Shown here piece by piece: positions 8,366 through 63,448 of a DNA stretch of 64,000 nucleotides. Position 1 is the stretch's first letter; each line of letters starts with the position of its first letter. The stretch spans positions 144,770,001 to 144,834,000 of the forward strand of contig NC_073377.1 of assembly GCF_028641065.1 (NCBI RefSeq), in the 5' to 3' direction. Source of the DNA: Leucoraja erinacea. Its lineage: Eukaryota. Under the pieces are notes generated by a model. That model was not told where the DNA came from, did no database searches, and saw nothing but the letters and a program-made list of their open reading frames with translations. Both the position numbers and the translations under genes were made by a program.

Positions 8366-9732
8366 AACTTTCTGGTCAGGTTGCCTTTTACCAAATTATT
8401 TTTATATCCTGCCTGTAGGTGTCATCCCAATTCTCCAATCAAATACATTACCAATTTTATATGTCAAGCACATCATCCACTTGATTATCATGCCAAAGTA
8501 AACAACACTGAATATTTTGTATAAAGTGTGTACAATAAACTATCAATATAAAATATGTCCTTTGCCCATCCCCTCAATGTTTGACATCAGCATGCTTTTG
8601 TCTGTGCTTGCCCAACTATGCAGTGTTTGCGAAGGTCTCCAGCTTGGTTAATGCAAAGGACAAACAATACAATCGCTCAAGGACAGTTTCAAAATCAGAC
8701 TACGCCCATCTACAACAGGATGTAGGAAGACTCTGTCATTTATCATGCTATAATCATCTTGAACTTAGTTTTCACCATCTGCCGTAACCCCAAGGTACCT
8801 CTAGGTCCTCCAGGCCTGGTCAATGCAAGCTACTTTAATTTAGTATTAGCCACTCAAAATACAGCTCTTTCAGGTTAAATTTCAACCAACGGGAGAAGTG
8901 GTCAATTCACTTTGCTGAAATCAAGATCATTCACAAACGGATGATTTTGGTGCAATGTGAATTTGTAGACTATGGGAAGATGAGCGGGGAATGGGTCCAC
9001 CTGAGTTGCAGTTGCATAGGCTCTATGGGCTTGATACTTTGAATGGCCTGTCATGCTGTAACAATTCTGCACATCTCCGCACCTAGTAAAATATGTGCAG
9101 GTTAATTGTGCATATTAGTTTCCCAACTCATATTCTGACACTATCCAATTAATGTTAAATTAAACTAACTGCTTGGATTACTAAGATTTGCAACATATCA
9201 AAATCTGTATGCCTAGTATAATCCTCCACACATGTTTGTGTGCATGATTCATTCATCAGATATATCCTTAACCCCTGATTGTCCAGCTATGTATTTATAC
9301 ATGCTGCACCTGTGCCTCTCTCCTGAGCCTTGGAAAATATATTGCCCATCTTACTCAAAAACAAAGGAGATAAAAAATATTAATACACATTATTAAAGTG
9401 CATGCTATTTTACTTAGTATGGAAACAATATCCTAGTTTCTATAGTATCTCCACATAGCAGTAAGAATAAGGGGAAGGCCATTTCGGACTGAAAACTTTC
9501 GCACCCAGTGAGTTATGAATTTGTGGAATCCTCTGCCACAGAAGGCAGTGAAGACCAATTCTGGGACACATGGCTCCACAAGTGTTTGTAATTGCCTCCT
9601 TGATGCAGGTATAAGAGAGCTCTCAGCACCAAGTCTTTCCTGCACTCTTTCCATCACCTTTGGAAACTTTTATTACTGTTTATCAACATGAGGACCAGAG
9701 TTGTGCCAATGAAAGTCAAATAAGCCATTATG

Positions 9733-10925
9733 CAGAGCTGCCAACTCTCACACGTTGAGCGTGAGAATCATGCATTTTGCCCGATTCTCATGCTCTCACG
9801 CGGATCACAAATTTCTCACGTGAGAAATTCTGTGATCAACAAAAATTTCAAAACTAATATCAACTGTTTGGGTGCACTTCTGTTGACAAGACAGCAGCAT
9901 TCTTATTCTCTGTTATTCTAACTTGACCGAACTGTCACACATCACCAAAGCATGGCCCCATGCAAATTTACATTGAAAGACAAGGACCGGGCAGTGAATG
10001 AGTGTCACCCAGCGCAGCAAGTAAGGCCATGTCCTGCTCCCTGCGCCTGTCGGAATTTAAGGATTTGCTGCGAGCGGCAGGAGAGAGGTACATGGGCCGC
10101 GGAACCGGGGGGGCTGGAAAACGACAATTTTTGGCTAGACATGTTTCAATGTCTCAAGCTTTGGACGAGGCGCTGCTGTGCTCTAAGCAACCTGGTCATG
10201 GGTGTTGGAGAGCCGGGGCTGAGGGAGGGAGGAAGGGAGGGATAGAAGCAGAACCAGCAGTAGCAGATGCAGACAGGGAGCCGGGGCTGGCGAGTGTTTG
10301 CCATGCTGGCGAGTTGCTCGCTGCAGCTCCGGCCATGGGGCAGCCTCAGTGCAAGTGTCCTGGGCTGTCGGAGGTGTTGGAAACGTTGCGCCGCTGCCGT
10401 GAGAATCTCTGCGCCCAATTCGCCCAGGTGACTGGGATGGACCAGGCTACAACTCGGTGCATCCTGGAGGGCAACCAATGGCTGCTGGAAGTAAGTACCA
10501 AGCACTGGGTAGAAGCAGTGGAAGATAGTGGCCTTCAAATGTGGGCGGTTGGAGAAAACATCCTGATTTATTGCTAGATTTATGCTTAATGTAACTGCAG
10601 GAAAAATGTTCCCGATGTTGGGGGAGTTCAGAACCAGGGGTCACAGTTTAAGAATAAGGGATAGGCCATTTAGGACTGAGATGTGAACAAACTATTTCAC
10701 CCAGATAGTTGTGAATCTGCGGAATTATCTGCCATAGTGAGCAGTGGAGGCCAATTCACTGGATGTTTTCAAGATAGAGTTTTCTTAGTGCTAACGAAAT
10801 CAAGGAATATGAGGAACAAACAGGAACGAGGCACTGATTTTAGATGAACAGACATGATAATATTGAATGGCAGTGCTGGCTCGAAGGCCGAATGGCCTAT
10901 TCCTACACCTATTTTCTATGCTTGA
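9733..10925 (+). mobile_element. Composite non-autonomous element (hAT-like CAGAG(C/T)TGCCA end + TDP2-like exon + CR1 piece), copy 1
   Basis: The terminus, internal segments and CR1 junction are shared with the inverted copy at 34236-34797. The right end is not defined. Confidence 0.7.
10389..10490 (+). pseudogene. TDP2: TDP2 exon-1-like fragment (UBA-like domain start) with splice donor
   Basis: RRCRENLCAQFAQVTGMDQATTRCILEGNQWLLE resembles recalled vertebrate TDP2 (RRLLCVEFASVASCDAAVAQCFLAENDWEME). It is followed directly by GTAAGT (10491-10496). No exon 2 (RALNS.F) was seen. Confidence 0.65.
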
Positions 10926-10989
10926 GTATATGGCAAAAAAATCGTCCACCTGATTTTGAAGCATTCATGCATGGTGGAGGTATCATGTA

Positions 10990-11215
10990 GTCCTAGAGTG
11001 ATACAGTGTGAAAACAGGCCCTTCGGCTCAACTTGCCCACACCCGCCAACATGTCCCAGCTACACTACCTGCTTTTGGTCCATATCCCTCTAAACCTGTC
11101 CTATCCATGTATCAGTCCAACTATTTCTTAAATGTTGGGATAGTCCCTGCCTCAACTACCTCCCCTGGCAGCTTGTTCCATACACCCACCACCCTTTGTG
11201 TGGAAAAAGTTGCTC
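10990..11215 (-). mobile_element. CR1 LINE 3' end (second subfamily)
   Basis: Near-identical to 24780-25095, which translates LPRVGESRIRGH.LKVKG.RF...FFTQR.V..WN.LP. Confidence 0.75.
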
Positions 11216-11289
11216 TTTAAAAGTTACGTCTTAAACATATTTCAAACAAAAAACATTGAAATCATTCTTCTACAATGCACTAAAACATG

Positions 11290-14200
11290 ATTTTATATCG
11301 GTCACGTGAGTGACTACGTGAAGAGCCCGGCAGCCCGCATGCGCGTAAATACGTCGTTGCATGGCGCGGGAATCGGAGCAGTTCAAAACTGCGCAGGCAG
11401 GTAGGACAATTTTGTTTCAGGAATGGGCAGCTACTCCAAAAATAGGTGCAGCAGGCCTGGAGAAGCTGACGGTCGCAGCCTGTGCAGCTGCCGTCGTAAG
11501 CGGCCGGATTTGGTAAAGTTGCCGGTGAGGCTCCGGATGTGAGCAGGCGATCGGACTTGGTGAGGCCACCAGTGATGCTCCGGATGGGAGCAGGCAGCCG
11601 GACTTGGTGAAGCCAACAGTGAGGCTGTGGATGGGAGCAGGCGGCCAGTCTTAGTAAAAGTGTCGGGCGCGGCCCAGACAGCTGCCGGCCCAGACAGCTG
11701 CCGCCTTGAGGCTCCGAACGAGAGAAGGCGGCCTGAATTAGGAAAGCTAACGGGCGTGACCCGCGCAGCTGCCGCCAGTAAGGCTCCGGATGGTAGCAGG
11801 CGGCTGACCGCCGAGAAGTTGATGGGCGCAAACCGTCCAGACACCTCCGTGGAGGCTCCAGAGGGAGCAGACAGCGGTACGCTGAGAAGCTGAACGGTGC
11901 GACCCATACAGCATCCTCGTTGAAGCTCCAGAAAGGAGCAGTCGGAAGTCACTAGCTGGCCCCGCATTAACAGCCTGTTGATCCAGGCTTACTGTAGTGG
12001 CAGGCGTGACCTGTCCAGTGAGCCCCGCTGAGGCTCCGAAGGAGCAGCTGCCCAAAGGAGCAGCCTGTTGATCCAAAAACTGGTAGTGCAATCTGTCAAA
12101 AAAGGCAGAAGGCTGTCGAATTAAGCTCAGATTACTAAGATACCAAAGGAACATAAGGGGCCGAAGGAGCGGCCAGGCTAACCAGGCTGGGAGTAAAACT
12201 GGTAGCGTGCCCTGCACAGTAAGCTCCAGCAAGGCTCCAAAGAGACTGTACGCCGAAGGAGTAGTCTGTTCTATTAGGCTCAGAAATGCTGGCAGGCGTG
12301 TCTTGCACAGCAATGTCACTTTTGAGCTCCGGAAGGGAGCTATTTGGCAAGCATGGGACTCAAGATGTGGTCAGACTTCGTCTGCAATGGAACTTCGCTG
12401 AAGCACCAACAAGGAGGGCGTCCAGGAGTCAGAGACGTTGGCAGGTAAGGAACTTTGTTTCAAGAACGGGCTGCTGCTCCGAAAATAGGTGCAGTGGGCC
12501 CGGGGAAGCTGGCACAGCCTGTGCAGCTATTGCCGTGGAGTTTCCGAAAAGGAGCAGGCAGCTGGAATCAATAGGCTGGCGGCTCGGCCGGTGCAGCTAC
12601 CACCGTGGAGGCTCCGTAATTGAGCAGGCGGCCGCATTCAATAAGCTGACGGCTCGGCCGGTGTAGCTACCGCCGTTAGGCTCCGAGTGCGAGCAGGTGG
12701 CCGGATTCAGTAGGCTGACGACACGGCTGGTGCAGCTACTGCAACTGAGGCTCACCTCTGTTTTGGGGCTCCAAGGGAGCAGGTGACTGGTTGAGGAGAG
12801 CTGATGGGTGCGGCCGTACAGACACCTCCATCGAGGCTCAAAAAGAGAGCCAGCCAGATGCCTATAGGAAGCAACACCTGGCTCAGGGTTGTGATATATT
12901 CCTCCCCGCTAGACTCAGTTGAGGCTCAAAAAGGGAGCCGGCCAGATGCCTATAGGAAGCAACACCTGGCTCACAGTTGCATTATATTCCTCCCCTCTAG
13001 ACTCCGTTGAAGCTCCAGAAGGGAGCAAGTCCGGACTCGGAGTCATTAGCAGGCGCGACCTGTCCAGTCAGTATATAATAGAATTGTGCTCCTGGCTCAG
13101 AGACACTTACAGGCTGCTCTAGTCAGATGCCTGTGAAAGCAACACCTGGCTCAGGTTTGTATTATATCTCCCGCTCAGAAGAGGGGAAGCAATACCTGGC
13201 TCAGGTTTGCATTATATTATCTCCCGTTCAGAAGAGGGGAAGCAACACCTGGTTCAGGGTTGCGTTATTTTAGCTCCCGCTCATTAGAGTGGAGTACTGG
13301 AGATTATTACATAACATAACTCAGATTATGGGGATATCGACAAGGAATTCGAATCCCCTTAACTTATGGGGGATATGCTGCAGTTTAATCATATGAAGGA
13401 GTTCCGTCTCTGGCTAAGAGCATCAGTGATTTAACTTCTTATCAGCTAAGGAGGGGTATGTGTTGGATACGGCTGGGAAAAGTGCCAGTCCAGATTAACT
13501 GCCTGACTTTGGATGTTCCAAATGTCAATCTCACCATTTGGGATATCTCAGTGGTGATATGTGGGCAGAGAATTAAAATGTCAGCGCATCCAAAAGACTG
13601 GTCACTGATGTCATTTTGGCCTTTGCAAGGGCAGTAGATGGGTTCAGTTTTCGGTTGTGCGGAAGATGCATTAGCACTTCTATGTAATACGCAGTTGGAG
13701 CTAAATTGCCTTTGCAAAATGCTATAACGCCTGAGGTAATTCCTAAAAAAATTGCTCATTTATGCAGGGCCAGTAACATGCAGCCTGCAAAGTATCTCTT
13801 CGGAGAGGACATTTAGCAAGTTTAAGAATTGGCAGGAAGAACTTTAGGCAGCTGCGGGGGTGGGAGAACCATCCTATAAGGGTAGGGCTTCAGTATTCTG
13901 GCGGATATACCACCTCTATATATAACTAACGGCAGGAATTGTTACTCTGAGGCTGGTTGGAACACCAGGCCTACTCAATTCAGACCTAGCCAGAGGCCTT
14001 TTTTAGGCCCAGGGCCATCGCGCTCACCTTGGTGAAGAGAATGTGTTGCTCACACTGGCGACTGTGATAGGTCGTTCCAGGCAGGAGACTGCAGCAGCAA
14101 CTCCTGGTTCACGGTTGCATTATGATATTTTCCAATCTGAGGGTGATTCTGCCTGTGAGGAGTTGACAGGGAACTCGTATTCCCACACCAAATGGATGCT

Positions 14201-16217
14201 ACGCTTCAATTCTAGTCGCATAAGGATCTGGTGTATGTTCTGATTCTGTCAGACACTGGAGGTTTGTAGGTTAATGCCATCAGTTGAGGCAAAATCAAAG
14301 TCGAAAGGCTTTAACCCCAGAATGTTTTCGAGAATTCTCAGTGGAGAAAAAATGTAGCATGCCAAATCAGGTTAGGATTTGGCTAGTCTTGATCATGTGT
14401 TTGGTTAACCAGTTTAAGATGGATAATGGTCATTCAGCAATTTAGCTGATTCAGAGGATTTAGGGCCTCAATCGATCTTGAAGATGCATACTTGTCCATA
14501 TCTATACACGAGAGGCACAGATATATCTGGTGTGTGTGATGCCAAAGCCAGTGTTGGAAGTTTTAGGCTCTACCTATGGGTTCTGGCCTAAATTGTAGAA
14601 TTTACAAAGATTCTAAAGTTAATTCAGCCCTACTCAGATCAAAAGGGCATTGTGTCATGGAGTTTATAGACGATATGCTTTCGTAGCTGATAAGACTCAG
14701 GAGTTTTATCAGTAGATGCCTCTTACGCTATTAAAGATGAGGCGACATGAATGTTAATAGTACCAATTTGGCCTACTCGTTCAGAGCGTCCATTATAAAA
14801 GGCGGCTGAATGCAACTCCTACTTACTTTAAGTCACAAGTGGTGGCTAGTTCAGCCTATTTCTCCTGCAGCTAGCTCTGTACGGTGGTTTGTGTAGAGAC
14901 ACATGTGAGCTACTTTTTAAACAGAAGTAGCAGAGGTTTGTGGTTCTTTCAGTTTGGGCTTAGAGAAGCGATTGTGTTATCGCACAATTGACACTGCTCG
15001 TGCTGCTTTGTCATTCTCTCTAGTACTTTAAGTCGGACAATAAATGATTGGTTATTAACCCACTGTTAACTAACGTTATGCAAGGTGTATTTTATATGAA
15101 TACTTTTATATGAATATTTGCTCCAAGAATACTTGGCCAATAGACTTACTCACTTACTCTAAAGCCTAAACTCATAATAGTGTGGAATGTGTATCAGTAA
15201 AAATGAGTATGCAGATATTCATCTACTGTATTCCTAAAGTGGAGCAGTATCTTTTAAGTTAATTATGCTGTTAGCAACTGATTTCAGCACAAAGAAAACA
15301 GACTTTACTCTATCTCCGACTGCATCTCTGGGTCATATATGACATGGGGGTCGGTTGTTATGGGAATGATCTCATGAAGCTAAACGGGCACGGCTGGGTA
15401 CAATTTAACAGCATACCTACCAGATCGGAGATTGGGGGTGTTTATTATGTATACAGGGACACTGAGCTTACTAGTACCTATGAGATGAAGGATAGTTTTC
15501 TTCATTGCTATTCAAAAGTTTCACAAGAAATTGCTGGTGTAGACTATCTCAACATGAATAGTGTGTAAGCAGTGAATAGCGGGAGTGAATTCAAATAATT
15601 TCAAGTCTCACTCTACCAGGGGGGGCTGGTTCAGTAGCAGCCAATAGAATGGATATTCCCCTTTGATCATTTTCTTGCAACAGCAGGAGGCTATCATAGT
15701 GCACTTTCAGAAGTTATAAATTGCGTTAAACATGTCTGGATAGTTGCAGATATAATTCTGAACAGTGTTGCATGAGTTATTGTCCTAACTCAAAGCCAAT
15801 TGAGACAATTAGGGGCAATGGACATATATGTAAGTTACCATCACGTTGTTAATAGCCCATGTTTTTTCTACCATTTATGGTTTATGTGTTTACGTGTTTC
15901 ACACACAGATTGATTTACTGCATGAAACCACAGAGCTTTGAAGGCTTCAAGTAGTCACTCACGTGACTTTGTTATAAAATAGAAAGATTGAAGGAGAACT
16001 TACTGTTTGAAGTTTCATCTTTATTTTATGAGAAGTTGAGGTGAGGGACTGCGTTCCCTCCACTCCCAACCGTTTCACATAAAGATCTTTCGGTAAGTCA
16101 AGGGTTATTAATCTTTCTATAGTTTAAGTTTGTGCAAGTGGTCTGCGGTTTCATACAGTTGCTCTGAAGATTGACGCACATGCGGCTGGTGGGCTCTTCA
16201 CGTAGTCCCTCCCCAAC
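11290..16217 (+). mobile_element. DIRS1-like tyrosine-recombinase retrotransposon, degenerate
   Basis: Gag-like DALALLCNTQLELN and KYLFGEDI (~13440-13815). RT motifs ASIDLEDAYLSI (14465-) and FIDD (14663-14674). YR motifs TARAALS, SAQRKQTL and FKSHSTRG (HSTR 15609-15620). The left ITR (11290-11349) is complementary to the right ITR (16171-16211) and to the ICR (15945-16053). Confidence 0.92.
11390..13290 (+). repeat. Degenerate GC-rich tandem repeats in the DIRS 5' region
   Basis: Recurrent GAGGCTCCG...GAGCAGGCGGCC units. A ~100-bp duplication at 11393-11490 and 12440-12535. About five GGAAGCAACACCTGGCTCAG units in 12867-13260. Confidence 0.85.
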
Positions 16218-16707
16218 CCAATTCCTTTGACAGGTTAAATAGAAATGTCCCCAATCTCGTTGTTTTATTAATTGAACACGTAGATGAACATCCTCCAGGA
16301 GTGTAATCAGATGGAAACTGATTCAGATGCGATGTTTAAGAGCTTGTTCAAAGAAGGGGCATATTTTAAAGGAGTGACAAAGATACTTGCAGGGGAATGT
16401 GTGAGGAGGTTATTATTTATCTTTAGTTTTAGCTTGAACCAGGACATCTGAAGATTCAAATTTTAATATAGTAATTGTGCTGATACTGACTCCAAGTGAC
16501 CACGTAATGACTATCATCAATTACAGAGGTTTTATTTTTTGGATGCCATTTAAACTTCACTTGGATTTCAATCACTTCAAAGTAAAAGTAATTGGGAATG
16601 GGGAGCATTGGTGCAAAAATTTGCCCTTTGTACATATGAACTATAATATAATGATATATGCATGTTGGTAGGTGCAATCAAAACAAAGATCTTTTTACCA
16701 TTGTGTT

Positions 16708-16834
16708 CAAGAAAGAACTGCAGATGGTGGAAATTCGAAGGTACACAAAAATGCTGGAGAAACTCAGCGGGTGCAGCAGCATCTATGGAGCGAAGGAAAT
16801 AGGCAACGTTTCGGGCCGAAACCCTTCTTCAGAC
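16708..16834 (-). mobile_element. Penelope pLTR short copy with hammerhead motif
   Basis: Minus strand reads gtCTGAAGAa-GGGT-ttcg-GCCC-GAAACGTT-gc. Nearly identical to the insert at 44189-44279. Confidence 0.75.
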
Positions 16835-17516
16835 TTCTTCAGACATCTTTTTAACATTGTTGTGTTATGAATACCACAGAAAATATTACGTACTCTCAAG
16901 ATCGCAGTAAATAGAATATTATTGCATAAATATATATTGTTGTGGGTCTTTGTATTTTGGAAACGTCCCAGCTGAGGGGAAGACAGCGAAATACTGAAAA
17001 TATTGCGGGTGAAAATAACTTCAGGACAGTTTGTTAGGAAGATGAAGGAAATGGTAACAGATTACTTATACAGCTGAATGAGTATAATTTTAAGGATGAG
17101 AAATTTTATTCAATCAATTGATAACTTTCTTGACAAAGTAACTAGCATGTTAGATAAAAAGGAAGCCAACGGATGTAGCAAATTTTGTTATACCAAATTT
17201 GGTCCGTGAAGTGCCCCATAAAAGATTACTGCATTAGATAAGCACCTGTGAACTTAAACGTATTAGGTTAATTCCAGGGGGAGTTAATGGATATGGGGCT
17301 TTATGTGTAGGCCAGATATATTGTCAATGCAGAGGGGCTAGGAGCAATGACAAGTGTGCATCGAGAGCCAATTCCTGGAATAGTACTAGGTCTGCAGTCC
17401 AAGCTGGGACAATGGGAGTGTTCAGCACTGGGAACCTAAGCAGGTAAGCAGCCATGATCAGGGTAGAATAGGGGGCCAGGTGTTAGGCTTGGTCTCTCGC
17501 AAGGACCCCCAGATCT

Positions 17517-17993
17517 CGTTGTACTTCCCCTTTTCCCAATTTGACACCATTCAGATAATAATCTGCCTTCCTGTTTTTGCCACCAAAATGGATAACCTCA
17601 TATTTATCCACAATAAACTGCATCAACCATGCATCTCCCTACTCACCCAACCTGTACGTCACCCCGCATCCTCATAGCATCCTCCTCTCAGTTCACATTG
17701 CCACCCAGCTTTGTGTCATCTGCAAATTTGCTAATATTACTTTAAATCCCTTCATCTAAATCATGAATGTATATTGTAAATAGCTGCGGTCCCAGCACCG
17801 AGCCTTGTGGTACCCCACTAGTCACTGCCTGCCATTCTGAAGGGGACCCGTTAATCCTTACTCTTTGCTTCCAGTCTGCCAACCAATTTTCTATCCCTGT
17901 CAGTATCCTACCCCCAATACCATGTGCTCTAATTTTGCCCACTAATCTCCTATGTGTGACATTATCAAAGGCTTTCTGAAAGTCCAGGTACAA
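17517..17993 (-). mobile_element. CR1 LINE reverse transcriptase fragment
   Basis: Reads YLDFQKAFD...[32 protein letters not shown], followed by FADD. Confidence 0.93.
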
Positions 17994-17999
17994 TACAGT

Positions 18000-18450
18000 C
18001 GCAGTTGCTAAACACTTTAACCACCCCTCCAATTTCCACACTGGCCTTTCCGTCCTGGGCCTCTTTCACTGTCATAGAGTGAGGCCCAGCGCAAATTGGA
18101 GGAACAACACCTCACATTTCACTTGGGCAGCTTACACCCCAGCAGTATGAACATTGACTTATCTAACTTCAAGTTACCCTTGCTTTCCCTCTCTCTACAT
18201 CCCTCCCTTTCTCTGTTCTCCGACCAGTCTGACTGTCCCCAGGTAAATGTTATAACTGTTTGCTTCATTGTCACCTTCTCCTAGCTAACAATGATCTATT
18301 CTACATTTTCCTTGATTCCCTATCTCTTTTGATGTCTCATTTTCCTTACCCTTCCTTATCTCCGTGTCTCCCACTCCCCCGACTCTTAAGCTGAGGAAGG
18401 GTCTCGGACCAAAACATCTCCCATTCCTTCTATCCAGAGAAACTGCCTGT
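18000..18450 (+). mobile_element. Penelope 3' fragment
   Basis: Reads LEEQHLTFHLGSLHPSSMNIDLSNFK, then a degenerate pLTR (CTGAGGAAGGGTCTCGGACC). Confidence 0.8.
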
Positions 18451-20154
18451 CCCATGGTGATCTGGTAATTATTTTTAACAATATGTAGCAGCACACAGCT
18501 TGATAAATGGATTGAGGTTCCACTGTGCTTCGGATCAAATTGTCAAACATAGAATGAGTGCACCCAACGAAAACCAGCCAGGCAATACTAAGATGCAACT
18601 ATAAAATTGCTTGAAAAGCCCGCTTTAAATATACAGTTTCAATTGCACCAATATCTTCATGTAAATGTTTTTATTGTATTAACTTATAAAAAATATATCT
18701 GATCAGAAATAAAAACTTCCAATCTATCAATAATTCAAAAAATAATACACAATCAGCTCAATTAATGTTAGTGATATTAAAAGACAAGTAATGAAATGGA
18801 TTTGCATTTCAGGCTCCTGCCTGTCACTATATCAAAAGGATTGATCCATTCAATAAACTGGTTAATATTTGCAAGAAAAGAGCAAACACAGAACATTACA
18901 AATGTATATTAATATGTATGTGCTAATACAGCAATGTTTGTACTTTCTCATCTACAAACTTTTTAAAGCAATAAAATATATTATTTATTTGAATATTAAG
19001 TGATCTATCTGGTATTCCATCTTTCCTCAACCATGACATTTTATTAAGGATCATTGAATTTAGTGGAACTCTGATTAAGCCTTGCTAAGTAAGGGCAATG
19101 GTTCGGTTCTTGCCACTTTTGGTTTTGTCCCCTTCTGAGGTTAAAATTAACCTAAGCCTTTTAATCAAATTTTTTTCATGTCCCAGTTTAGTCGCATTGA
19201 GCCTTTCTGGGGGGCAACATGGGTTGTAATTCGGGGTACACAGGTCATTGTTTATCGGGTGATGCACTGAAGTGAGGATACACTGCTCCAACAAGCAATG
19301 GGTATTTCTATAGTCAGAGAAGGTTGCCGTAACCCCACCTCAGGACAACCTCCTCCTTGTTAGTTTCCTGTGTTTGAAAATACAACAAATTAATGCTGCA
19401 AAATAAAACGTTGACCCTTCCTAGCAAAATGTGACATTGAGCTGTCCTTTAGATACACTGGAGCTCCTGTTCCTGTTCACTAAATTCATTAACATCCGTA
19501 AAAGCTATTTGTACAGGTTGGTGGAGATGACAGATTCAAATGCAGGCAAATGGGACCAGCTCAGAAAGACATTTTGGTCAGCATTGACATGTTGAGCGTT
19601 ACAGCCCATTTCAGTGTTGCATAGCTCTATGATTCTCATTTAATTGTTACTGTAATTCAGCATTTTAATAAAGTAGTTTTTCTTCCTCACCGTTTGTCAT
19701 TATCATGATCTCTCCTCAAGGATACAGACAGTACTCCCAACTTAAGGAAGTTTAGAAGTAGCTGGATTTCTCCTTTCATAAATAGCAACTGCCTTGTGAA
19801 AGTAGAAATCAGGTCATAATCATAGAGCATGGTTTTCAGTTACCTCAGTTAACAATTTTTTTTGGGTTGGTTCCTGCTGGTAATCATCCTGCTAACAGAG
19901 ATAAATAAATAAACTTTGCTACCGATATTCCCTTTACCTAAGGACGATAAGGGAATGGAATATGTTACCACCCAACACACGCGCTGCTGCTGATGTTAAG
20001 TCATTAGAAAAGGAGTTGAGCAACTAGATCTCCTCAACTTGGTCAAAAAGGCCCACTTCAAAAATGTAATCGCTGCTCTACTTACTCCGACCTGCACGAG
20101 ATAACCACTGATGAGGTGCTTGCGCAGTAATCAACCAGAACCAGGCCCAGAGAT

Positions 20155-20515
20155 CAAGCTCTAACTTCACATAACCCTTGCTTTCTCTCTCACTCCGTCC
20201 CTCCCCCACCCTAGTTCTCGGACTAGTTTTGCTGATTAATTTTACTGTTTGTATGCCTCGTTGTCATCTTCCCCTCAGCCAACAATGAACCATTCTACAT
20301 CTCCTTGATCATCGTCTGTTTTGATCTGTCGTTTTCACACCTTGCCCTTCCATATCGAGTTTCCCTCTCCCCTGACTCTCAGTCTGAAGAAGGGTCTTGA
20401 CCCGAAATGTCACCGATTCCTTCTCTCCAGATTTGCTGCCTGGCCTGCTGAGTTACTCCAGCATTTTGTGTCTATCTTCAGTATAAACCAGCATCTGCAG
20501 TTCCTTCTTACACTA
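20155..20515 (+). mobile_element. Penelope 3' UTR/pLTR fragment
   Basis: CTGAAGAAGGGTCTTGACCCGAAATGTC at ~20384-20411, plus the shared GCTGCCTG.CCTGCTGAGTTACTCCAGC tail. Confidence 0.75.
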
Positions 20516-22962
20516 AAAATTTGTTAGCTCGGGATACTGATCTGTGATTGTAGACTGAACTCTCCTCAAGAAACAGTCGTGTATGAGGGCTGCTTGTAAT
20601 TATATTACATTTAACTTGGATGTCAGAAAGTATTGTTTCATTTGGGAGTTAACAGTTGCAGGATGTAAGAAACCATTTATTTAAATGCTCTATGTGTCAT
20701 CATGACACTTACAAAGGTAAAATGGCAACAAAGCCTCCTGCGATCTTTCGTGAATATATCAGAATGCGGCATATAGCATTCAACACAGGAAGACCAGAAA
20801 TCTGAAATATACTCTGGGATTGCTTGGCTTTATGTCAAAATCATCTCCTCTTCCACTGTTTCTTGAATTAAGTTATTTAAAGAAAATTCAGCATGACACA
20901 GCCAAATAAGTTTGCAGGAGATGACAATCTCCGCTAAGTTTTATAATAAAGTTTAATTTGCATATACTTCAAGCCGATGAAAAGATAATTTTGCAAGATG
21001 TGCAGATGATCAATGGTTTTATATCCCCAAAGCTGAATTTGATTACCAAAGTATTTTATTGATTAAACTAAGTTTTCAAATGTTTAAATGTAATATCAAA
21101 TTCAGTGAGTCTTTGCAAGTGGATCAGACGACCGGCAGATTTTTTGACCCGTGATCTATTAAGACTTTACATTGCAAAACTGCACTATTTCAGGATATAC
21201 CTGTGAAATCAGTTGAATGAGAAAATTATACTTTTGCATCATCAGTTAATAATGATTAACGTTGGAATATTTTGGCATCCAATGAATTTTATATGACATT
21301 CCCCAGTTTGGTATTTCATATCTTAATTCACTACTAACACAAAGTGGCTGCAAGGTTGTTTTTAATATAAACCCGATGCCAAAAAAGGTTGTCACTCGTG
21401 TTGAAACATGAACACATGAAAAGTAGTATCAGCAGTAGACATTCAATTCCTTCTGATTGCACCATCCATCATTCACCAAAATCACAACTGATCTTGGACC
21501 TCAATACCATTTTCTCGTCTTATCCCTATATCTGTTTTGAATGTTATCAATGATCTTCCACAACCATTCCAAGGCACAGAATTCCAAAGAATTCCCAGCC
21601 TGTGTGAAAAAACCTGTCTCTACATTTTGATACTAAATTGACTACCCTTTATTTTGGGACAGTGACCCCCTCCTAATTCTAGAGTTCTTAACTAGGTGAA
21701 ACATTCTCTGCACATCTGGAATTTTAAGGCTCCTGAGAATGCTGCATGTTTCAATTAGCTCACTTTTCATTCTTCTAAACTATACAAAATAAAGGGCAAA
21801 CCAACTCTATCTCTCCTCATGTGACAGAAGGACATCCCAGAAACCAATCTAGTGAATCTTTGATTCTGCAGCAAATATATCCTTTTTCAGTTATGAAGAC
21901 CAAAATTGCACACAATATTTCAGGTATGATCTCACAAAAGCACTTTACTTACATACAGACCACAACAGGAAAGCATCTTTTCTGCATGATGCTGCCTGAA
22001 CAGCTGAGTTACTTCAGCACATTACGTCTTTTTGTGTTAACCAGCAACTGTTTCAGGAGAGAGTTAGATTTAGCTCTTAGGACTGAATCAAGGGATATGG
22101 GAAAAAGCCAGAACGGGGTACTGATTTTGGATGATCAGCCATGATCATATTGAATGGCGGTGCTGGCTTGAAGGGCAGAATGGCCGACTCGTGCGCCTAT
22201 TTTATATGTTCTATGTTTTCTAAGTGGATGAAGTAGATGATTTAAAACTGATGTATTACTCCTGCACCTATTTTCTATCTTTCTATGTAACCATCTTTTA
22301 ACAATGGGAACAAGCCCTGAACATACACAGTATTCGTTTACTTGCAGGTATGTTGAAGATTAAATGAGAGGAAAGTTCATTGCACTTCATGTCTTGAAGA
22401 ATGTTGGTTGAAGTCTTGTTGAAGTTTTGTTGTGCCCAGATGAGTGCAGAGTTCAGGGAAATTGTCATTGTTAATTTAGTAATTAGTGTGGGCATCCTGG
22501 AAGGCACATGGCAAGATAAGCTAGCTTGCCAGAGGGGTATAACACAGTCTGACAAGGAGAGTCCAGATCATTGGAATCTCTGTTTCTCCCTCCAATCCTC
22601 TGAACAACAGTACACCAACGTTGAAGTATTCTATGGCGGTGATGACAATGATTAGCAATTTTCAGCCAGCAGAGCACCAACCACATATTTGTGAATTGCT
22701 ACTCTACAGTATCTGTTGAATTTGAAAGTCACTGCAGCCCTGACCTCCATTGCATCTTGTTCAATTCTGGCGGCAGCAAAGAATATATGCCACAAATCCG
22801 AATCTGCAGTTTGCTGCTTCAAATGTGACGTCAAGAATGCTCTGTGTTCAAAGAAAGGAGATTCATCTTTTTTTCAAAACAGAAATAGACTAACACCAAC
22901 AGGTATCAGGAGCACATGCATTTGCCAGGATCAGAGCTTCAGGAAAGAATGGATTACTCTCT

Positions 22963-33227: not shown

Positions 33228-33330
33228 CCGGGCTCTAAATTAATGGTTGCCCAGTTGCCAATGACCACCTAAAGTCCCGCCGGGCAACCTAAAAGCCGTG
33301 TAATTTTGCCCGGCTTGACAAGCAGCCGGG
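33228..33330. mobile_element. hAT-like terminal fragment related to the 62074-63448 element
   Basis: CCGGGCTCTAAATTAATGGTTGCCC...GCCGGGCAACCTAA matches the reverse complement of 63380-63448. Confidence 0.65.
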
Positions 33331-33485
33331 ACACCTGCTGTTCAACTCTGAGCGAGCCCCCCTCATTATCTCTCTCTCTCTCTGTCACTCTCCGTCTCCA
33401 CCCAACATCCATGTCCAGGCTGCCGGGTCTCCGCTCTCATGCTCCTCATCCGCCGGCACAGCCGGCCGCCTTGCACATGCGCACT

Positions 33486-34050
33486 GCCACACCTGGAGGG
33501 TTGTGTGCAGATTTGGTCTCCTAATTTGAGGAAGGACATTCCTCAAATTGAGGGAGTGCCGCGTAGGTTCACCAGGTTAATTGCTGGGATGGCGGGACTG
33601 ACATATGATGAAAGAATGGATCAACTGTGCTTGTAACTGGAATTTAGAAGGATGAGAGAGGATCTTATAGTAGAAACTTATAAGATTCTTAAGGGATTGG
33701 ACATGCTAGCTGCAGGAAAAATGTTCCCCATGTTGGGGGAGTTCGGAACCAGGGGTCACAGTTTAAGAATAAGGGGTAGGCCATTTAGGACTGAGATGAG
33801 GAAAACATTTTCACCCAGAGCGTTGTGAATCTGTGGAATTCTCTGCCACAGAAGGCAGTGGAGGCTAATTCACTGGATGTATTCAATAGAGAGTTAGATA
33901 TAACTCTTAGGGCTAACAGAGTCAAGGGATATGGGGAGAAGGCAGGGACGGGGTCCTCATTGGGGATGATCAGCCATGATCACATTGAATGGCGGTGCTG
34001 TCTCGAAGGGCTGAATGGCCTATTCCTGCACCTATGTTCCATGTTTCTAC
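33486..34050 (+). mobile_element. CR1 LINE 3' fragment
   Basis: Reads PHLEGCVQIWSPNLRKDI..IEGV.RRFTRLI.GMAGLTYDER and continues to the CR1 3' tail. Confidence 0.9.
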
Positions 34051-34235: not shown

Positions 34236-34797
34236 TCCACTGCCTTCTGTGGCAGAGAATTCCACAGATTCACAACTTTCTGGGTGAAGAAAGTTTGTCC
34301 TCATCTCTGTCCTAAATGGCCTACCCCTTATTCTTAAACATTGTGACCCCCTGGTTCTGAACTTCGCCAACATCAGGAAATGTTTTTCCTGCAGTTACAG
34401 TAGGTGGAAATCTAGCAGGCAAGCAGGATGCTTTCTCCAGCCGCCTCCATTGGACTGCCACTATCTTCCACTGCTTCTACCCAGTGCTTGGTACCTACGT
34501 CCAGCAGCCACTGGTTGTCCTCCAGGATGCACCGAGCCACTGCCTGGTCCATGCCAGTCACCAGGGCGAATTCTGTGGCTCCTGTCCGCATCTGCCCCTG
34601 CCGCTCCATTCCTCCGCTCCCTCCGCCCTGGCTCTCCAACACCCACGGCCCATGCAGTTGATATTAGTTTTGAAATTCTCGTTGATCACAGAATTTCTCA
34701 CGACAGAGGGTGAGAAATTCTGTGATCAGCGTGAGAGAGTGAGAATTTGGCGAAATGTGTGATTCTCACGCTCAATGCCTGAGAGTTGGTAACTCTG
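34236..34797 (-). mobile_element. Composite hAT-like/TDP2-exon/CR1 element, copy 2 (internally deleted)
   Basis: Starts CAGAGTTACCAACTCTCA on the minus strand, with the same order of parts and the same intron-to-CR1 junction as 9733-10925. Confidence 0.75.
34499..34575 (-). pseudogene. TDP2: TDP2 exon-1-like fragment, copy 2
   Basis: Reads EFALVTGMDQAVARCILEDNQWLLD, followed by donor GTAGGT (34498-34493). Confidence 0.65.
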
Positions 34798-43808: not shown

Positions 43809-43825
43809 AATGAAGGCCTGTTTTA

Positions 43826-44455
43826 AGTATCAAATAGATGAGCAAGAGGGTGATCAAGGCGGAGAAAGTGTAGAGGACAATGCCCATGTAGTCCAACTCG
43901 TAGGAGTGCAGGTCCACCATGACGACGCCGTGGCCGCAGTGGGCTATGGAGGGAGGTGCAGGTGACATCGGTGACCAGGGGAGGGATGTAGGTGCAGAGA
44001 AAGTGGTTGCCACTTAGCCGCAGCTCCCGAAGGTGTTTGATGGCTCTCTCCGGGAAACTGGAGACCTGGATGATCTTCAGGTTGTTGTAACTGAGATCCA
44101 GATACTGCAGGGAGGACACGTCCCGCAGGAAGTCCTTGGTCAGCTTGGAGAACTGGTTGTGGGTTGAAGCCGCAGAGTCTGGGTGCAGGTACACAAAAAT
44201 GCTGGAGAAACTCAGCGGGTGCAGCAGCATCTATGGAGCGAAGGAGATAGGTAACGTTTCGGGCCGAAACCCTTCTTCTGAGTCTGGGTGCAGTTGGACA
44301 GCATGCGAGGGACCGTGGGCAACAGGTTGCTACCGAGGTCCAGCAGCTCCAACCCCAGTTGAAGCTCCACAGCTTGTTACCACTCAGTACAAGCTCCTTG
44401 AGTAGCGGGGGCAGGTGGTCAAACACGTCTTGCGGCATGAACGCGAGCTTCTTCC
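43826..44455 (-). pseudogene. TLR7: TLR7-like fragment (C-terminal LRRs, LRR-CT, transmembrane start), disrupted
   Basis: Joined frames give LAFMPQDVFDHLPPLLKELVLSGNKLWSFNW / LELLDLGSNLLPTVPRMLSNCTQT / NQFSKLTKDFLRDVSSLQYLDLSYNNLKIIQVSSFPE..GNHFLCT / IPPLVTDVTC / GHGVVMVDLHSYELDYMGIVLYTFS. This is colinear with recalled TLR7 (VPERLSNCS, LTKYFLQD, SFPE, NRFLCT, IPYLATDVTC, CELD). It has frameshifts, deletions and an insertion, and no TIR signalling domain. Confidence 0.88.
44189..44279 (-). mobile_element. Short Penelope pLTR insertion within the TLR7 fragment
   Basis: Flanked by the 14-bp TSD GAGTCTGGGTGCAG (44175-44188, 44280-44293). Near-identical to 16741-16830. Confidence 0.85.
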
Positions 44456-46039
44456 CCTAATAATCTGCTGCTATCTGTTTTCGAGAGCAAAAACTTGCAA
44501 AGGGCAGGCACGGTTCCTCGCCAGCGAAGATGGACACAGAATGCAGGAGTAACTCAGCGGGACAGGCAGCATCTCTGGCGAGAAGGAATGGGGGACGTTT
44601 CGGGTCGAGACCCATTACTTCTCTCCAGAGATACGGCAACAACACAGCACAAAACCAGTCACAAAACCACCGACCTAGATGCGGCCGCGCTGAATTCTAT
44701 CTTTAAAACAAAGCCACAGGATGGAGAGGTCTTCTTTAACACTGTTGCTTATTAAAACAAACCTTCAATCAGGATTGGCTCAAGAGTAACTCGGGAGACG
44801 AACTTGGAACATCGCAGAAATGACAACTAAACGTCAAACTTGTCATACCCGTGGGAACTCGGTTAAACTCTTGATCATACACTTGCACTCGTACACAACC
44901 ACAAGTCTTTCACTAGGGGTACCTCTTGTGTCAACTCGCAACGTGAGACTCAGCTATTACATCTTCACATATATCACAACATCTAACTTCCTCCTTTGCT
45001 TCTCAATCTACACATGTTTCTGCTCACTTCATTATTACACAGATAGTCGTGAAGTTTAGTCCATTGACCAATGATATTGTTTTACCCAGTCTAGAGGCCA
45101 AACTAAAAGATTTGGATCAGCCCAATGCTATTTATATCCCTGTATTTCATATGGCCAAATGGCCTATTTCATTTAAATGGTTCCTCACTAACATTGAATA
45201 ACTTCTTCATAATTGCTATCAGTGCCTTACAAAACTCTTCCTGATCTTTCCCAAGATTGAGTTCATATAGCCCATTCAAATCCCCATCTAATTTAAAACT
45301 AAAGCATTCATTTTATTTTCTATAATGCTTTTTCTAACCAACCCAAAAAATCATACAAGGAACACCTTATCACAGAAAATGTATCTCTCTAAAAATGTAG
45401 GAGAAATAAAGATATGCAATTGCTACCAAATTACTCCTTAAATGCAAGATACACAAAGAGCCTGATCGAAAAATGTCACATCAAGATTGCTTCTACATAT
45501 ACAAAGAAACAATGTAACAGAATGCAAACTAATAACACCATGATCATTGTACCAAGCAGACACTTGAAGAAAATAGGCTATATATTCCTCTAAAAAATAA
45601 CTCAAATTACAAATACAAATGCTTTGAGGGGAAAGAAGATCTATTGAAACCGAAGGGATAAAACATAAATAATCATCGACAGCCAAGAATAAAATGACAT
45701 GATGGAAAAGTTAATTCAACTTGGACAGCGTGGACAAAATTCTCAAACAGTTATTACACTAAAGTAAAGAACAGAGTAAAGACCAAACAGCACAAACCTT
45801 TGTCTAAAAAAACCAAACACCTGCCACACAAATCAAATTGTCAAAGAGGAATCAGAACCTCATGCATACAAAATTAATAAAAAAAAGTTCTGAAACAAGA
45901 AATTGTTGAGGCTTTGGAAGGCAGGGTAGACGATACAGTCATCCAATATAATTTAACAGATGACATGCGTCACAATTTGGCGGGATGTCATTTCACTGCA
46001 GCAATGACAGTCACAGGGTCATAGAACAAAGCAATAAAC

Positions 46040-62073: not shown

Positions 62074-63448
62074 CAGGGCACTCACTTAACTTTTTTTCCC
62101 TGTTGCCAGCCGGGCAACTTAGGCAGCTTTTCAGGTTGCCAAATGACAGTTTAGGTGGTCAATTTAAGATGGCTTTCATGACGTGTGCGATAATGTGCTC
62201 GAACGAAGTGTGTAGTTACCAGTCGTAATTATGCTCAATGAAGCATTCACATATTATTTCTGCTTCAAATAAAGTCACAAACTAAACATATTCACCAATA
62301 AAGACATGATATATACCACAATGACATGCAGCAAAATTATAATAATCTCAACTCTTTTTACACATTGCAATTAATGCAATTTCTATTATTTCTTTTCACT
62401 TCCCAACAAAAATGTGGTTGGATTATTCAGCGTATGATCAACCTGTGTCAATAAATCCTGGACCATGGTAACATATATGCTTAACCATGCACATTACCAT
62501 GCACACGAAAATGATCATGACATGGCCATAGCATGGGTCGTTATTGCTATTGGAACAGAAACACTCTCGCTTCCAACATAATTTATCCACAACAAAATAT
62601 ACAGGTTGCAAGGAAATTTCTATAGGCATTTTATGATAATAGCTGATAAAACCGACTATACCCATCTGACAGGTTACTAACATTACACTAACTGACAAGA
62701 GATTGCCAAAGGACATAACTGCAGCAAATGTTCTTTTGGTAATATGTTTAAAGGTGCCAAAACGCCACATTACCAGACATTCAGATTAAATGTATGTGTT
62801 GTGAACAGCAATGAAGATACCCAGTTTGTACGCACCAGTTTTAAAACAAATTATTGATAAACGCTATTTCCATCATTCCCACTACAGAATTAACTTTAAA
62901 ATTTCAACTGAAATATCTCCTGACCAAATGTGTGATGTAAATGACCGACTGTAGATGTAAAACCTGGATAAATCCAATGTATAGTTGTGAATGTTGCTCA
63001 TTAAATAACTACAGTACTGATACTCCATATTAAAAGCATTGATTGGCCGTTAAAATGAATTCTGTATTAACGTGTCAACGGTAGCAGTGACAGTTGAACA
63101 CTGTGGTTTTAATGTTTCACGTGTTCACAATTTAATTAATCCATCTTTATGGATTAAAACAAATGATAACATTGGGATTTAAAACACATTTGATTGCATT
63201 CCGTTATCAAGCATAGTCAATTTTCGCTCACCCCACACCTTTGCTCCGCACCACGTCGTTGCCGCCAACACGAAACATCACGTTCCTTTTCTCCAGAGAT
63301 GCTGCCTGACCCGCTGAGTTACTCCATTATTTGTGTCTATCTTCAGAATAAACTAGTATCTGCAGTGCCAAATGACTCGGCAATTAGGTTGCCCGGCGGC
63401 ACTTTGGGTGGTCATTGGCACCCGGGCAACCGCTAATTTCGAGCCCTG
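62074..63448. mobile_element. Non-autonomous hAT-like DNA transposon with 5-bp TSD
   Basis: CAGGGC...GCCCTG ends with subterminal GGGCAAC/GTTGCCC repeats. AACAT is duplicated at 62069-73 and 63449-53. An empty-site paralog lies at 59054-59187. Confidence 0.82.

Follow-up and report, generated by a model that had tools for sequence, protein, structure and literature searches.

A repeat with a hAT-like left end carries a fragment of the tdp2 first coding exon at many sites in skate DNA

Large-scale amplification of a host first exon has been described for bat Helitrons; one of these, HelibatN3, occurs in roughly a thousand copies that carry the promoter, 5′ UTR and first exon of NUBPL with a portion of its intron 1 (PMC4224331). 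Among animal TIR elements that captured genes, multicopy cases were found to be rare and of low copy number: a survey recorded 370 young Pack-TIRs in 100 genomes, four of them (1.4%) multicopy, and no Pack-TIR in elephant shark (PMC8277862). The multicopy examples include Pack-hAT-N8_XT, which carries the CAPSL 5′ UTR in frog in three copies, and Ssk-FB4 (PMC8277862). hAT elements have a YARNG end motif and 8-bp TSDs; the available text describes the non-autonomous Anolis hAT element hobo_AC as having a YARNG end, both TIRs, 8-bp TSDs, genomic DNA with old TE pieces including CR1, and subfamilies formed by internal deletion (PMC3014272). SVA_F1 and pt_SVA_D6 took up exon 1 of MAST2 and STK40, respectively, by splicing, and were copied through RNA to 84 and 94 copies (PMC6139936, accessible part). 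Neither 'skate' nor 'TDP2' occurs in the 12 supplement files of the Pack-TIR survey, and of two skate genome papers one mentions neither 'tdp2' nor 'hAT' (PMC9605692) and the other neither 'hAT' nor 'CR1' (10.1101/2025.06.08.657570). No TDP2-bearing repeat appeared among the literature matches listed; Repbase, Dfam and most subscription papers lay outside the scope of this search, and an unnamed repeat model may well exist in Repbase or Dfam.

The 64,000-nucleotide stretch of Leucoraja erinacea DNA analysed here (the window) contains two copies of a composite repeat in opposite orientation, copy A at 9733-10923 on the + strand and copy B at 34797-34236 on the - strand. In both, a transposon-like end and a piece resembling TDP2 exon 1 are followed by a GT donor, 105 bases of intron-like sequence and a shared junction with CR1. 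The name CR1, like the other repeat names used for the window, is tentative. Per segment, A and B were 82-90% identical, as shown by 119/134 matches in the end, 54/66 in the UTR-like leader, 64/74 in the UBA part, 88/105 in the intron-like piece and 137/152 in the CR1 part. A previous sequence-only reading of this DNA had described two diverged copies in opposite orientation with the same order of parts, sharing the end, the donor, an intron-like piece of about 100 bp and the CR1 junction; all of these were present at the positions it gave, and the intron-like piece measured 105 bases in both copies. No similarity between A and B was found beyond the copy limits, where the flanks are unrelated. 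With up to three mismatches allowed, the left-end motif matched at exactly two places in the window (9733, +, and 34797, -), compared to an expectation of 0.20.

Copy A opens with its left end (9733-9866, +), which comprises a 13-bp TIR-like terminus (9733-9745) and subterminal repeats folding as two hairpins. The long-form internal segment that follows (9867-10198, +) is mostly missing from B-type copies; it is a gap in B, was multi-copy in the sequencing runs, and is skipped by joints in four of them (X1, X4, X19 and X24). Either element interior or tdp2 upstream DNA is a candidate for this segment, which gave no Rfam or tRNA match and, in a six-frame reading by eye, nothing recognisable as an exon of a neighbouring gene. 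Next comes a G/A-rich leader (10199-10241, +), common to B (A 10199-10252 against B 34645-34591, 84%) and placed directly 5′ of the start of the protein likeness; it is likely to be the tdp2 5′ UTR. The homologue of the tdp2 first coding exon (10242-10490, +) encodes the N-terminal tail and the first two UBA-like helices, and ends at the donor GAA/GTAAGT (10490/10491). The donor and the 105 bases presumed to belong to tdp2 intron 1 (10491-10595, +) lead into a CR1-type LINE 3′ piece in sense orientation (10596-10923, +), which reaches the 3′ end of the LINE and is 75-82% identical to 33707-34046, 7294-6959 and 55746-55411.

Copy B is an internally deleted form without most of the segment corresponding to A 9867-10198 and without about A 10265-10416. 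Its left end (34655-34797, -; terminus 34797) lies within a CR1-type fragment, and is followed by a short linker, the leader and the deleted exon (34499-34654, -), where an ATG at 34609 runs in frame into the UBA helices over 37 codons (tblastn of skate TDP2, E 1e-9). The donor GAC/GTAGGT (34499/34498) and intron-like piece (34394-34498, -) precede the CR1 piece (34236-34393, -), which stops short at 34236, where a different CR1 fragment abuts. The CR1 junction falls on the same base in both copies (10596 in A, 34393 in B), and upstream of that base three other CR1 copies in the window carry different sequence. The CR1-type fragment that hosts B is 94% identical in its flank to 17607-17542, while A lies in another repeat, with a reading frame that may resemble the start of a Tc1-type transposase. 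In both copies the intron-like piece with the first CR1 bases (10491-10599 in A) has CAG as its last bases, so that a GT-AG intron of 109 bases is possible; no joint for such an intron was present among the joint rows listed.

tdp2 is a gene for the repair of protein-linked DNA breaks. The frame ending at the donor of A matched Pfam UBA_4 (E 7e-4, model positions 2-29 of 43), and the exon aligned to the skate TDP2 protein P0005 at 51/84 positions (E 1e-27). The best PDB match was the UBA of human TDP2 (E 4.3e-5), with residues 3-34 of 45 of 6q00_B covered by the cargo. The next match was p47, which was rejected as another UBA-like source on its E value (0.63, against 4e-5 for TDP2). A single-sequence search found no longer relatives among 7140 candidates; TDP2 emerged only with a profile of four copies, which retrieved two longer proteins among 8000 scored candidates, both of them skate TDP2 (E 3.2e-27 and 3.1e-19). 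These two, P0005 and P0006, are the only full-length relatives found for the cargo peptide (61-62% identity), and they identify TDP2 as its parent at the protein level, in agreement with the N-terminal UBA-like identity claimed in the earlier reading. The other rows of the profile, P0003 and P0004, are short proteins from public assemblies (71% and 75% identical) that represent further copies of the repeat. An ESM Atlas search gave best scores of 0.84 in UBA_4 clusters, which serve as leads only, and in viral contigs the profile had 117 pattern matches and no confirmed one.

In a joint alignment the copies keep to skate TDP2 from its very start until the second UBA helix is complete, and diverge exactly at the GT, where TDP2 continues with RALNSYF and all four copies with V[SG]T[KR]HW, so that in P0003 and P0004, as in A and B, the reading continues past this donor in one shared intron-like frame. 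Because the likeness stops exactly at the GT, it fits an exon boundary. The earlier proposal that the cargo stops at the end of exon 1 is upheld as far as this break at the donor goes, and we infer that the boundary is that of tdp2 exon 1 and that the 105 bases are probably the start of tdp2 intron 1. The UBA-like domain of the cargo is incomplete, as its last helix is missing. The catalytic domain is absent, as had also been claimed: tblastn of both skate TDP2s matched only A and B in the 64-kb window (best other E 0.13), with no later TDP2 exons and no exons of the C-terminal nuclease (PF03372). At one UBA position (10424-10426 in A, 34564-34566 in B), A and P0003 have Q like P0006, and B and P0004 have L like P0005, a split for which chance, two captures or gene conversion are alternatives. 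Both inner branches of a five-row protein tree were weak (70/68), and the tree supports no claim on dating or on a single origin. P0006 starts at an internal methionine, and P0005 and the repeat copies are about 35 residues longer N-terminally; the start of P0006 may be wrong, possibly through repeat masking of exon 1.

The repeat is dispersed far beyond the window. In the run index, 20 of 24 rows were holders, containing some of 9733-10590, from 9 studies and 7 coded organisms, and four runs, covering two of these seven organisms, were compared over 9570-10625 at 80% likeness. Two of them (X1 and X4) are DNA assemblies with different species labels, in which 8552 and 8559 contigs aligned, many on the flanking repeat and the start of CR1. 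In 60 contigs of X1 and 82 of X4 the sequence diverged before 9733, with loose ends of median length 211 and 255 nt that agreed with one another at only 0.37 and 0.34. The long, mutually unrelated sequence before 9733 in these contigs shows that 9733 is a true element end. The host repeat of A ran on uninterrupted past 9732 in 65 and 68 contigs and in 861 RNA reads, which shows A to be an insertion. The cargo itself was multi-copy: with contigs counted up to 128 per base, exon base 10339 was covered by the majority letter in at least 108 (X1) and at least 115 (X4) contigs, and base 10517 of the intron piece in 78 and 82. Among the joint rows listed, at least 15 contigs of X1 and at least 15 of X4 had a joint of the B type, between the left end and the leader near 10200. 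Because these joints recur in both assemblies, B represents a subfamily and is not a one-off. A different subfamily departs at 9770 in 27 contigs, and the contigs that start at 9733 may include cargo-free relatives.

Summed depth in X1 at exon bases 10383, 10433 and 10449 was 13,000-21,000, compared to 7-45 for the eight long X1 contigs listed, although summed contig depth is not a copy number. The family thus occupies many dozens of sites, and as a rough estimate may occupy hundreds to thousands. A simple segmental duplication of A and B was rejected, given the unrelated flanks and the presence of the family at many other sites. The view that a genomic, unspliced piece had moved as a unit and been amplified is strengthened by a family that extends far beyond two copies and starts at 9733 in the 60 and 82 contigs.

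Both copies start CAGAG, which fits the YARNG end motif of hAT elements, and the subterminal motifs of the left end fold into two hairpins (z -5.3 in A and -7.7 in B); clusters of these motifs were found in the window only at the two left ends. The second hairpin (9803-9837 and 34677-34734) is a near-perfect 19-base inverted duplication, possibly a template-switch scar of the capture. Scanning metagenome contigs for the end motif gave two loci. One of them (L002, which lacks the 19-base inverted duplication) holds a 433-base element at 2102-2534 whose start is 80% identical to A over 69 nt (E 4e-11) and which has a perfect 13-bp inverted end; no matching 8-bp TSD was found around it. Since this element with a like start has paired 13-bp TIRs, the skate end belongs to a TIR family. 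The second locus (L001, from 608) and L002 are short elements in unrelated-looking contigs, about 80% identical to the first 70-90 bases of the skate end, which suggests a widespread or horizontally moved TIR family. There were no matches to the end motif in viral contigs, and none to the exact intron-piece motif in metagenome contigs.

TIR-element sequence lies on the left side of the cargo only, in both copies. Downstream of A and B within the window we found no right TIR with a matching 8-mer: at up to three mismatches there were 15 (A) and 6 (B) candidate sites, of which one each was the left end of the other copy and none had fewer than four mismatches in eight TSD positions. Likewise, the second half of the host repeat was not found downstream of either copy (for A, by a 20-base motif test only). 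The right sides are disturbed, A by an inverted CR1 piece and then a 5-kb insertion, and B by the break at 34236 into another CR1 fragment, and it is plausible that the right ends of both were lost. The description 'hAT-like' in the sequence-only reading therefore holds for the left end, with its motif, subterminal repeats and likeness to the L002 TIR element, and fails for the right end, where neither a second TIR nor 8-bp TSDs were found. The repeat acts like a hAT-type Pack-TIR and is a candidate for either group. The left ends at 9733 and 34797 point towards each other across 25 kb and could in principle terminate a single large element; this idea was rejected, as their flanking 8-mers differ at 4 of 8 positions and their host repeats are different.

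Some other features of the window were recorded. The decayed 5-kb insertion right of A (11216-16219) has a motif near 11298 that recurs inverted near 15950 and 16190, a layout that we take to resemble DIRS-type retrotransposons. Beyond the inverted CR1 of B, at about 33230-33487, there is the apparent end of a different short TIR-type element, with a similar stretch near 62142; it does not pair with the left end of B. Leucine-rich-repeat fragments in shifting frames occur at 43823-44456 (-; Pfam LRR_8, E 1.9e-8), and by eye resemble a broken piece of a Toll-like receptor.

How was the cargo amplified? We think it probable that the tdp2 5′ end and a CR1 3′ fragment were picked up by a DNA transposon, non-autonomous and with one hAT-like end, which was then multiplied by transposase. 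Such an element would have taken up the tdp2 leader, first coding exon, donor, 105 intron bases and the CR1 3′ fragment; transposase acting in trans would have multiplied this composite into many sites in skate genomes, and internally deleted subfamilies of the B type would have arisen from it. A and B would then be old insertions in decay, their right ends removed or shifted as other sequence was later inserted or deleted, whereas intact copies would carry a right TIR. The tdp2 cargo would be a passenger, with half a UBA domain, no nuclease domain and no sign of selection. This account builds on the TDP2 origin and multi-copy state of the cargo, on the left terminus that is fixed at many unrelated sites, and on the shared junctions. 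A and B also have their first base in common and are set apart by internal deletions, a pattern seen in derivatives of DNA transposons (PMC3014272, accessible part). The main rival of this account is retroposition by CR1, given the sense orientation and fixed position of the CR1 3′ end. Here a TIR element would have lain upstream of the tdp2 5′ end, or of a copy of it, and an unspliced transcript running through exon 1 into the sense CR1 3′ end would have been copied by the CR1 reverse transcriptase, with the CR1 3′ end as the real right end. The junction is fixed in A and B and reached by family contigs, A extends to the natural 3′ end of the LINE at 10923 and has its 3′ tail in common with the LINE, two of two copies have no right TIR or TSD, and first exons did found the retroposon subfamilies SVA_F1 (MAST2) and pt_SVA_D6 (STK40), as described in the accessible part of PMC6139936. 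We nevertheless consider it unlikely, as both copies and the 60 and 82 contigs begin at the first TIR base, the variants differ by internal deletions, and the good donor is kept unspliced, unlike in SVA_F1. CR1-dependent retroposons are truncated at random at their 5′ ends and have right ends at the LINE terminus, and SINEs have a tRNA-, 5S- or 7SL-derived head. No SINE head was found in 9600-11000 (no Rfam match at E 1 and no ARAGORN gene), the host repeat of A does not resume after 10923 (again by the 20-base motif test only), and depth in X1 does not rise from 5′ to 3′ (23,000-85,000 in bins 9750-9857 and 36,000-60,000 in bins 10398-10469, a comparison that reaches only to 10625 and in which cargo-free relatives could fill the left bins).

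Two further explanations have less to commend them. Rolling-circle mobilisation from one end, Helitron- or Helentron-like, would give elements whose start is fixed and carries hairpins while their right ends vary, like the bat first-exon carriers, and would fit the two strong left-end hairpins and the failure to find a right TIR or TSD. Helitrons start with TC or T at the 5′ end, finish in a 3′ hairpin with CTRR and make no TSD. The skate end starts CAG and the base before it varies (G in A, T in B), and the related L002 element has paired 13-bp TIRs, so we regard this mode as very improbable, even though bat Helitrons favour 5′ gene ends and amplify these most (PMC4224331, accessible part). 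Hardly credible at all is the idea that A is the true first exon of tdp2 or of a paralogue, and B its local segmental duplicate. Copy A does have an open frame of 191 codons over 10002-10577 and a consensus donor, but tblastn of the skate TDP2s found the exon-1 part alone, searches with the 154-codon frame of A gave no relative over its first 72 codons, the flanks are unrelated and the cargo is multi-copy under two species labels. The idea is refuted, unless an exon 2 lies beyond the window and is linked to A by RNA.

If the captured exon is a passenger, do its copies show any use? Copy A has ATA at 10242 in the place of the start codon, whereas 48 and 47 contigs (with a loose end at 10230) show a start codon; in B most of the exon is gone, with the ATG at 34609 in frame. 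Between A and B, the 24 UBA codons showed five non-synonymous and three synonymous differences, and the 28 read-through codons eight and none, and identity was even across the segments. This pattern, from a small sample, is consistent with neutral decay; nothing points to a working product, and the copies look like decaying passengers. RNA was examined in one poly(A) run with the species label of the best DNA holder, of which about 5% was read and 2504 reads aligned, these not being assignable to A. Over the exon, depth was about 20 in each direction and showed no enrichment compared to the flanking repeat (50 to 1488 in RNA; 60,472 to 1,022,383 in DNA). By mate direction it was 29/25 at 10478, 27/15 at 10517 and 22/14 at 10546, so that 42 of 54 depth units passed the donor, which is mostly read-through; the fall of 10 in one direction could reflect spliced reads, perhaps from the mRNA of tdp2 itself. 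The rows listed contained neither a joint nor a loose end at 10490, a weak test in which the smallest RNA loose end listed had 47 reads. None of the 20 holders in the run index is recorded as RNA, which is evidence neither way.

The spread of a 'ready-made first exon', as the sequence-only reading had put it, is thus not borne out, given the ATA in A, the loss of most of the exon in B, the mostly non-synonymous changes and the RNA that mostly reads through the donor. On splicing from the donor, the single poly(A) run speaks for read-through, while as a weak test it is compatible with some spliced reads. Part of the family could still have been co-opted, with some copies working as promoters, or as first exons that are spliced onto genes nearby, or producing RNAs that affect tdp2. 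The start codon kept in the 48 and 47 contigs, the GT donor in all four copies examined, the drop in RNA depth from 25 to 15 across the donor in one mate direction, and precedents in bats (PMC4224331) and in Pack-TIR chimeras (PMC8277862), as far as the available parts of these reports go, would all fit. Given that exon RNA is about equal in both directions and no more abundant than the flanking repeat, that most of it passes 10490 with no joint or loose end there among the rows listed, and that the codon pattern between A and B is neutral, we judge co-option improbable. Also doubtful is the picture of a three-part chimera whose head comes from a DNA transposon, whose middle is a host first exon complete with start codon and donor, and whose tail is a LINE 3′ end. 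Skates would have hundreds to thousands of copies of it, made perhaps by CR1 via RNA and not by a transposase, and some copies would serve other genes as promoters or first exons or would yield RNAs acting on tdp2.

The repeat is real, old and of high copy number, and carries its gene fragment apparently on a vehicle of the cut-and-paste type. Gene capture at such a scale by an element of this type would be unusual in vertebrates, and the skate family would extend first-exon amplification to a cut-and-paste-type element in a cartilaginous fish. With exon and donor spread to at least many dozens, and probably hundreds or more, of sites, it provides a wealth of natural cases in which the use of captured first exons can be studied. 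There may also be a practical side, in that the true exon 1 of tdp2 may be hidden when skate repeats are masked de novo, and short reads there would be expected to multi-map.

Compared to TDP2 itself (P0005, P0006; PDB 6q00), the cargo is alike in the N-terminal tail and two UBA helices, and lacks the last UBA helix and the nuclease domain. SVA_F1 and pt_SVA_D6 share with the skate repeat a GC-rich host first exon amplified within a composite element, but only the skate repeat keeps the donor and the start of the intron. hobo_AC is alike in its YARNG end, in having taken in genomic DNA and CR1, and in its deletion subfamilies; it differs in having both TIRs and 8-bp TSDs, and a host coding exon is not mentioned in the accessible part of its description (PMC3014272). 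By vehicle, the nearest systems are the multicopy Pack-TIRs, which likewise have GC-rich 5′ gene sequence in a non-autonomous TIR element that moved repeatedly, although the skate family is old (82-90% between copies), occupies at least many dozens of sites and shows the left TIR end only. By cargo, the nearest is HelibatN3, which spread the same type of gene segment; the skate repeat differs from the bat Helitrons in having a TIR-type, hAT-like end in place of Helitron ends, a fish host, tdp2 as its cargo, an included CR1 3′ piece, and no spliced chimera seen.
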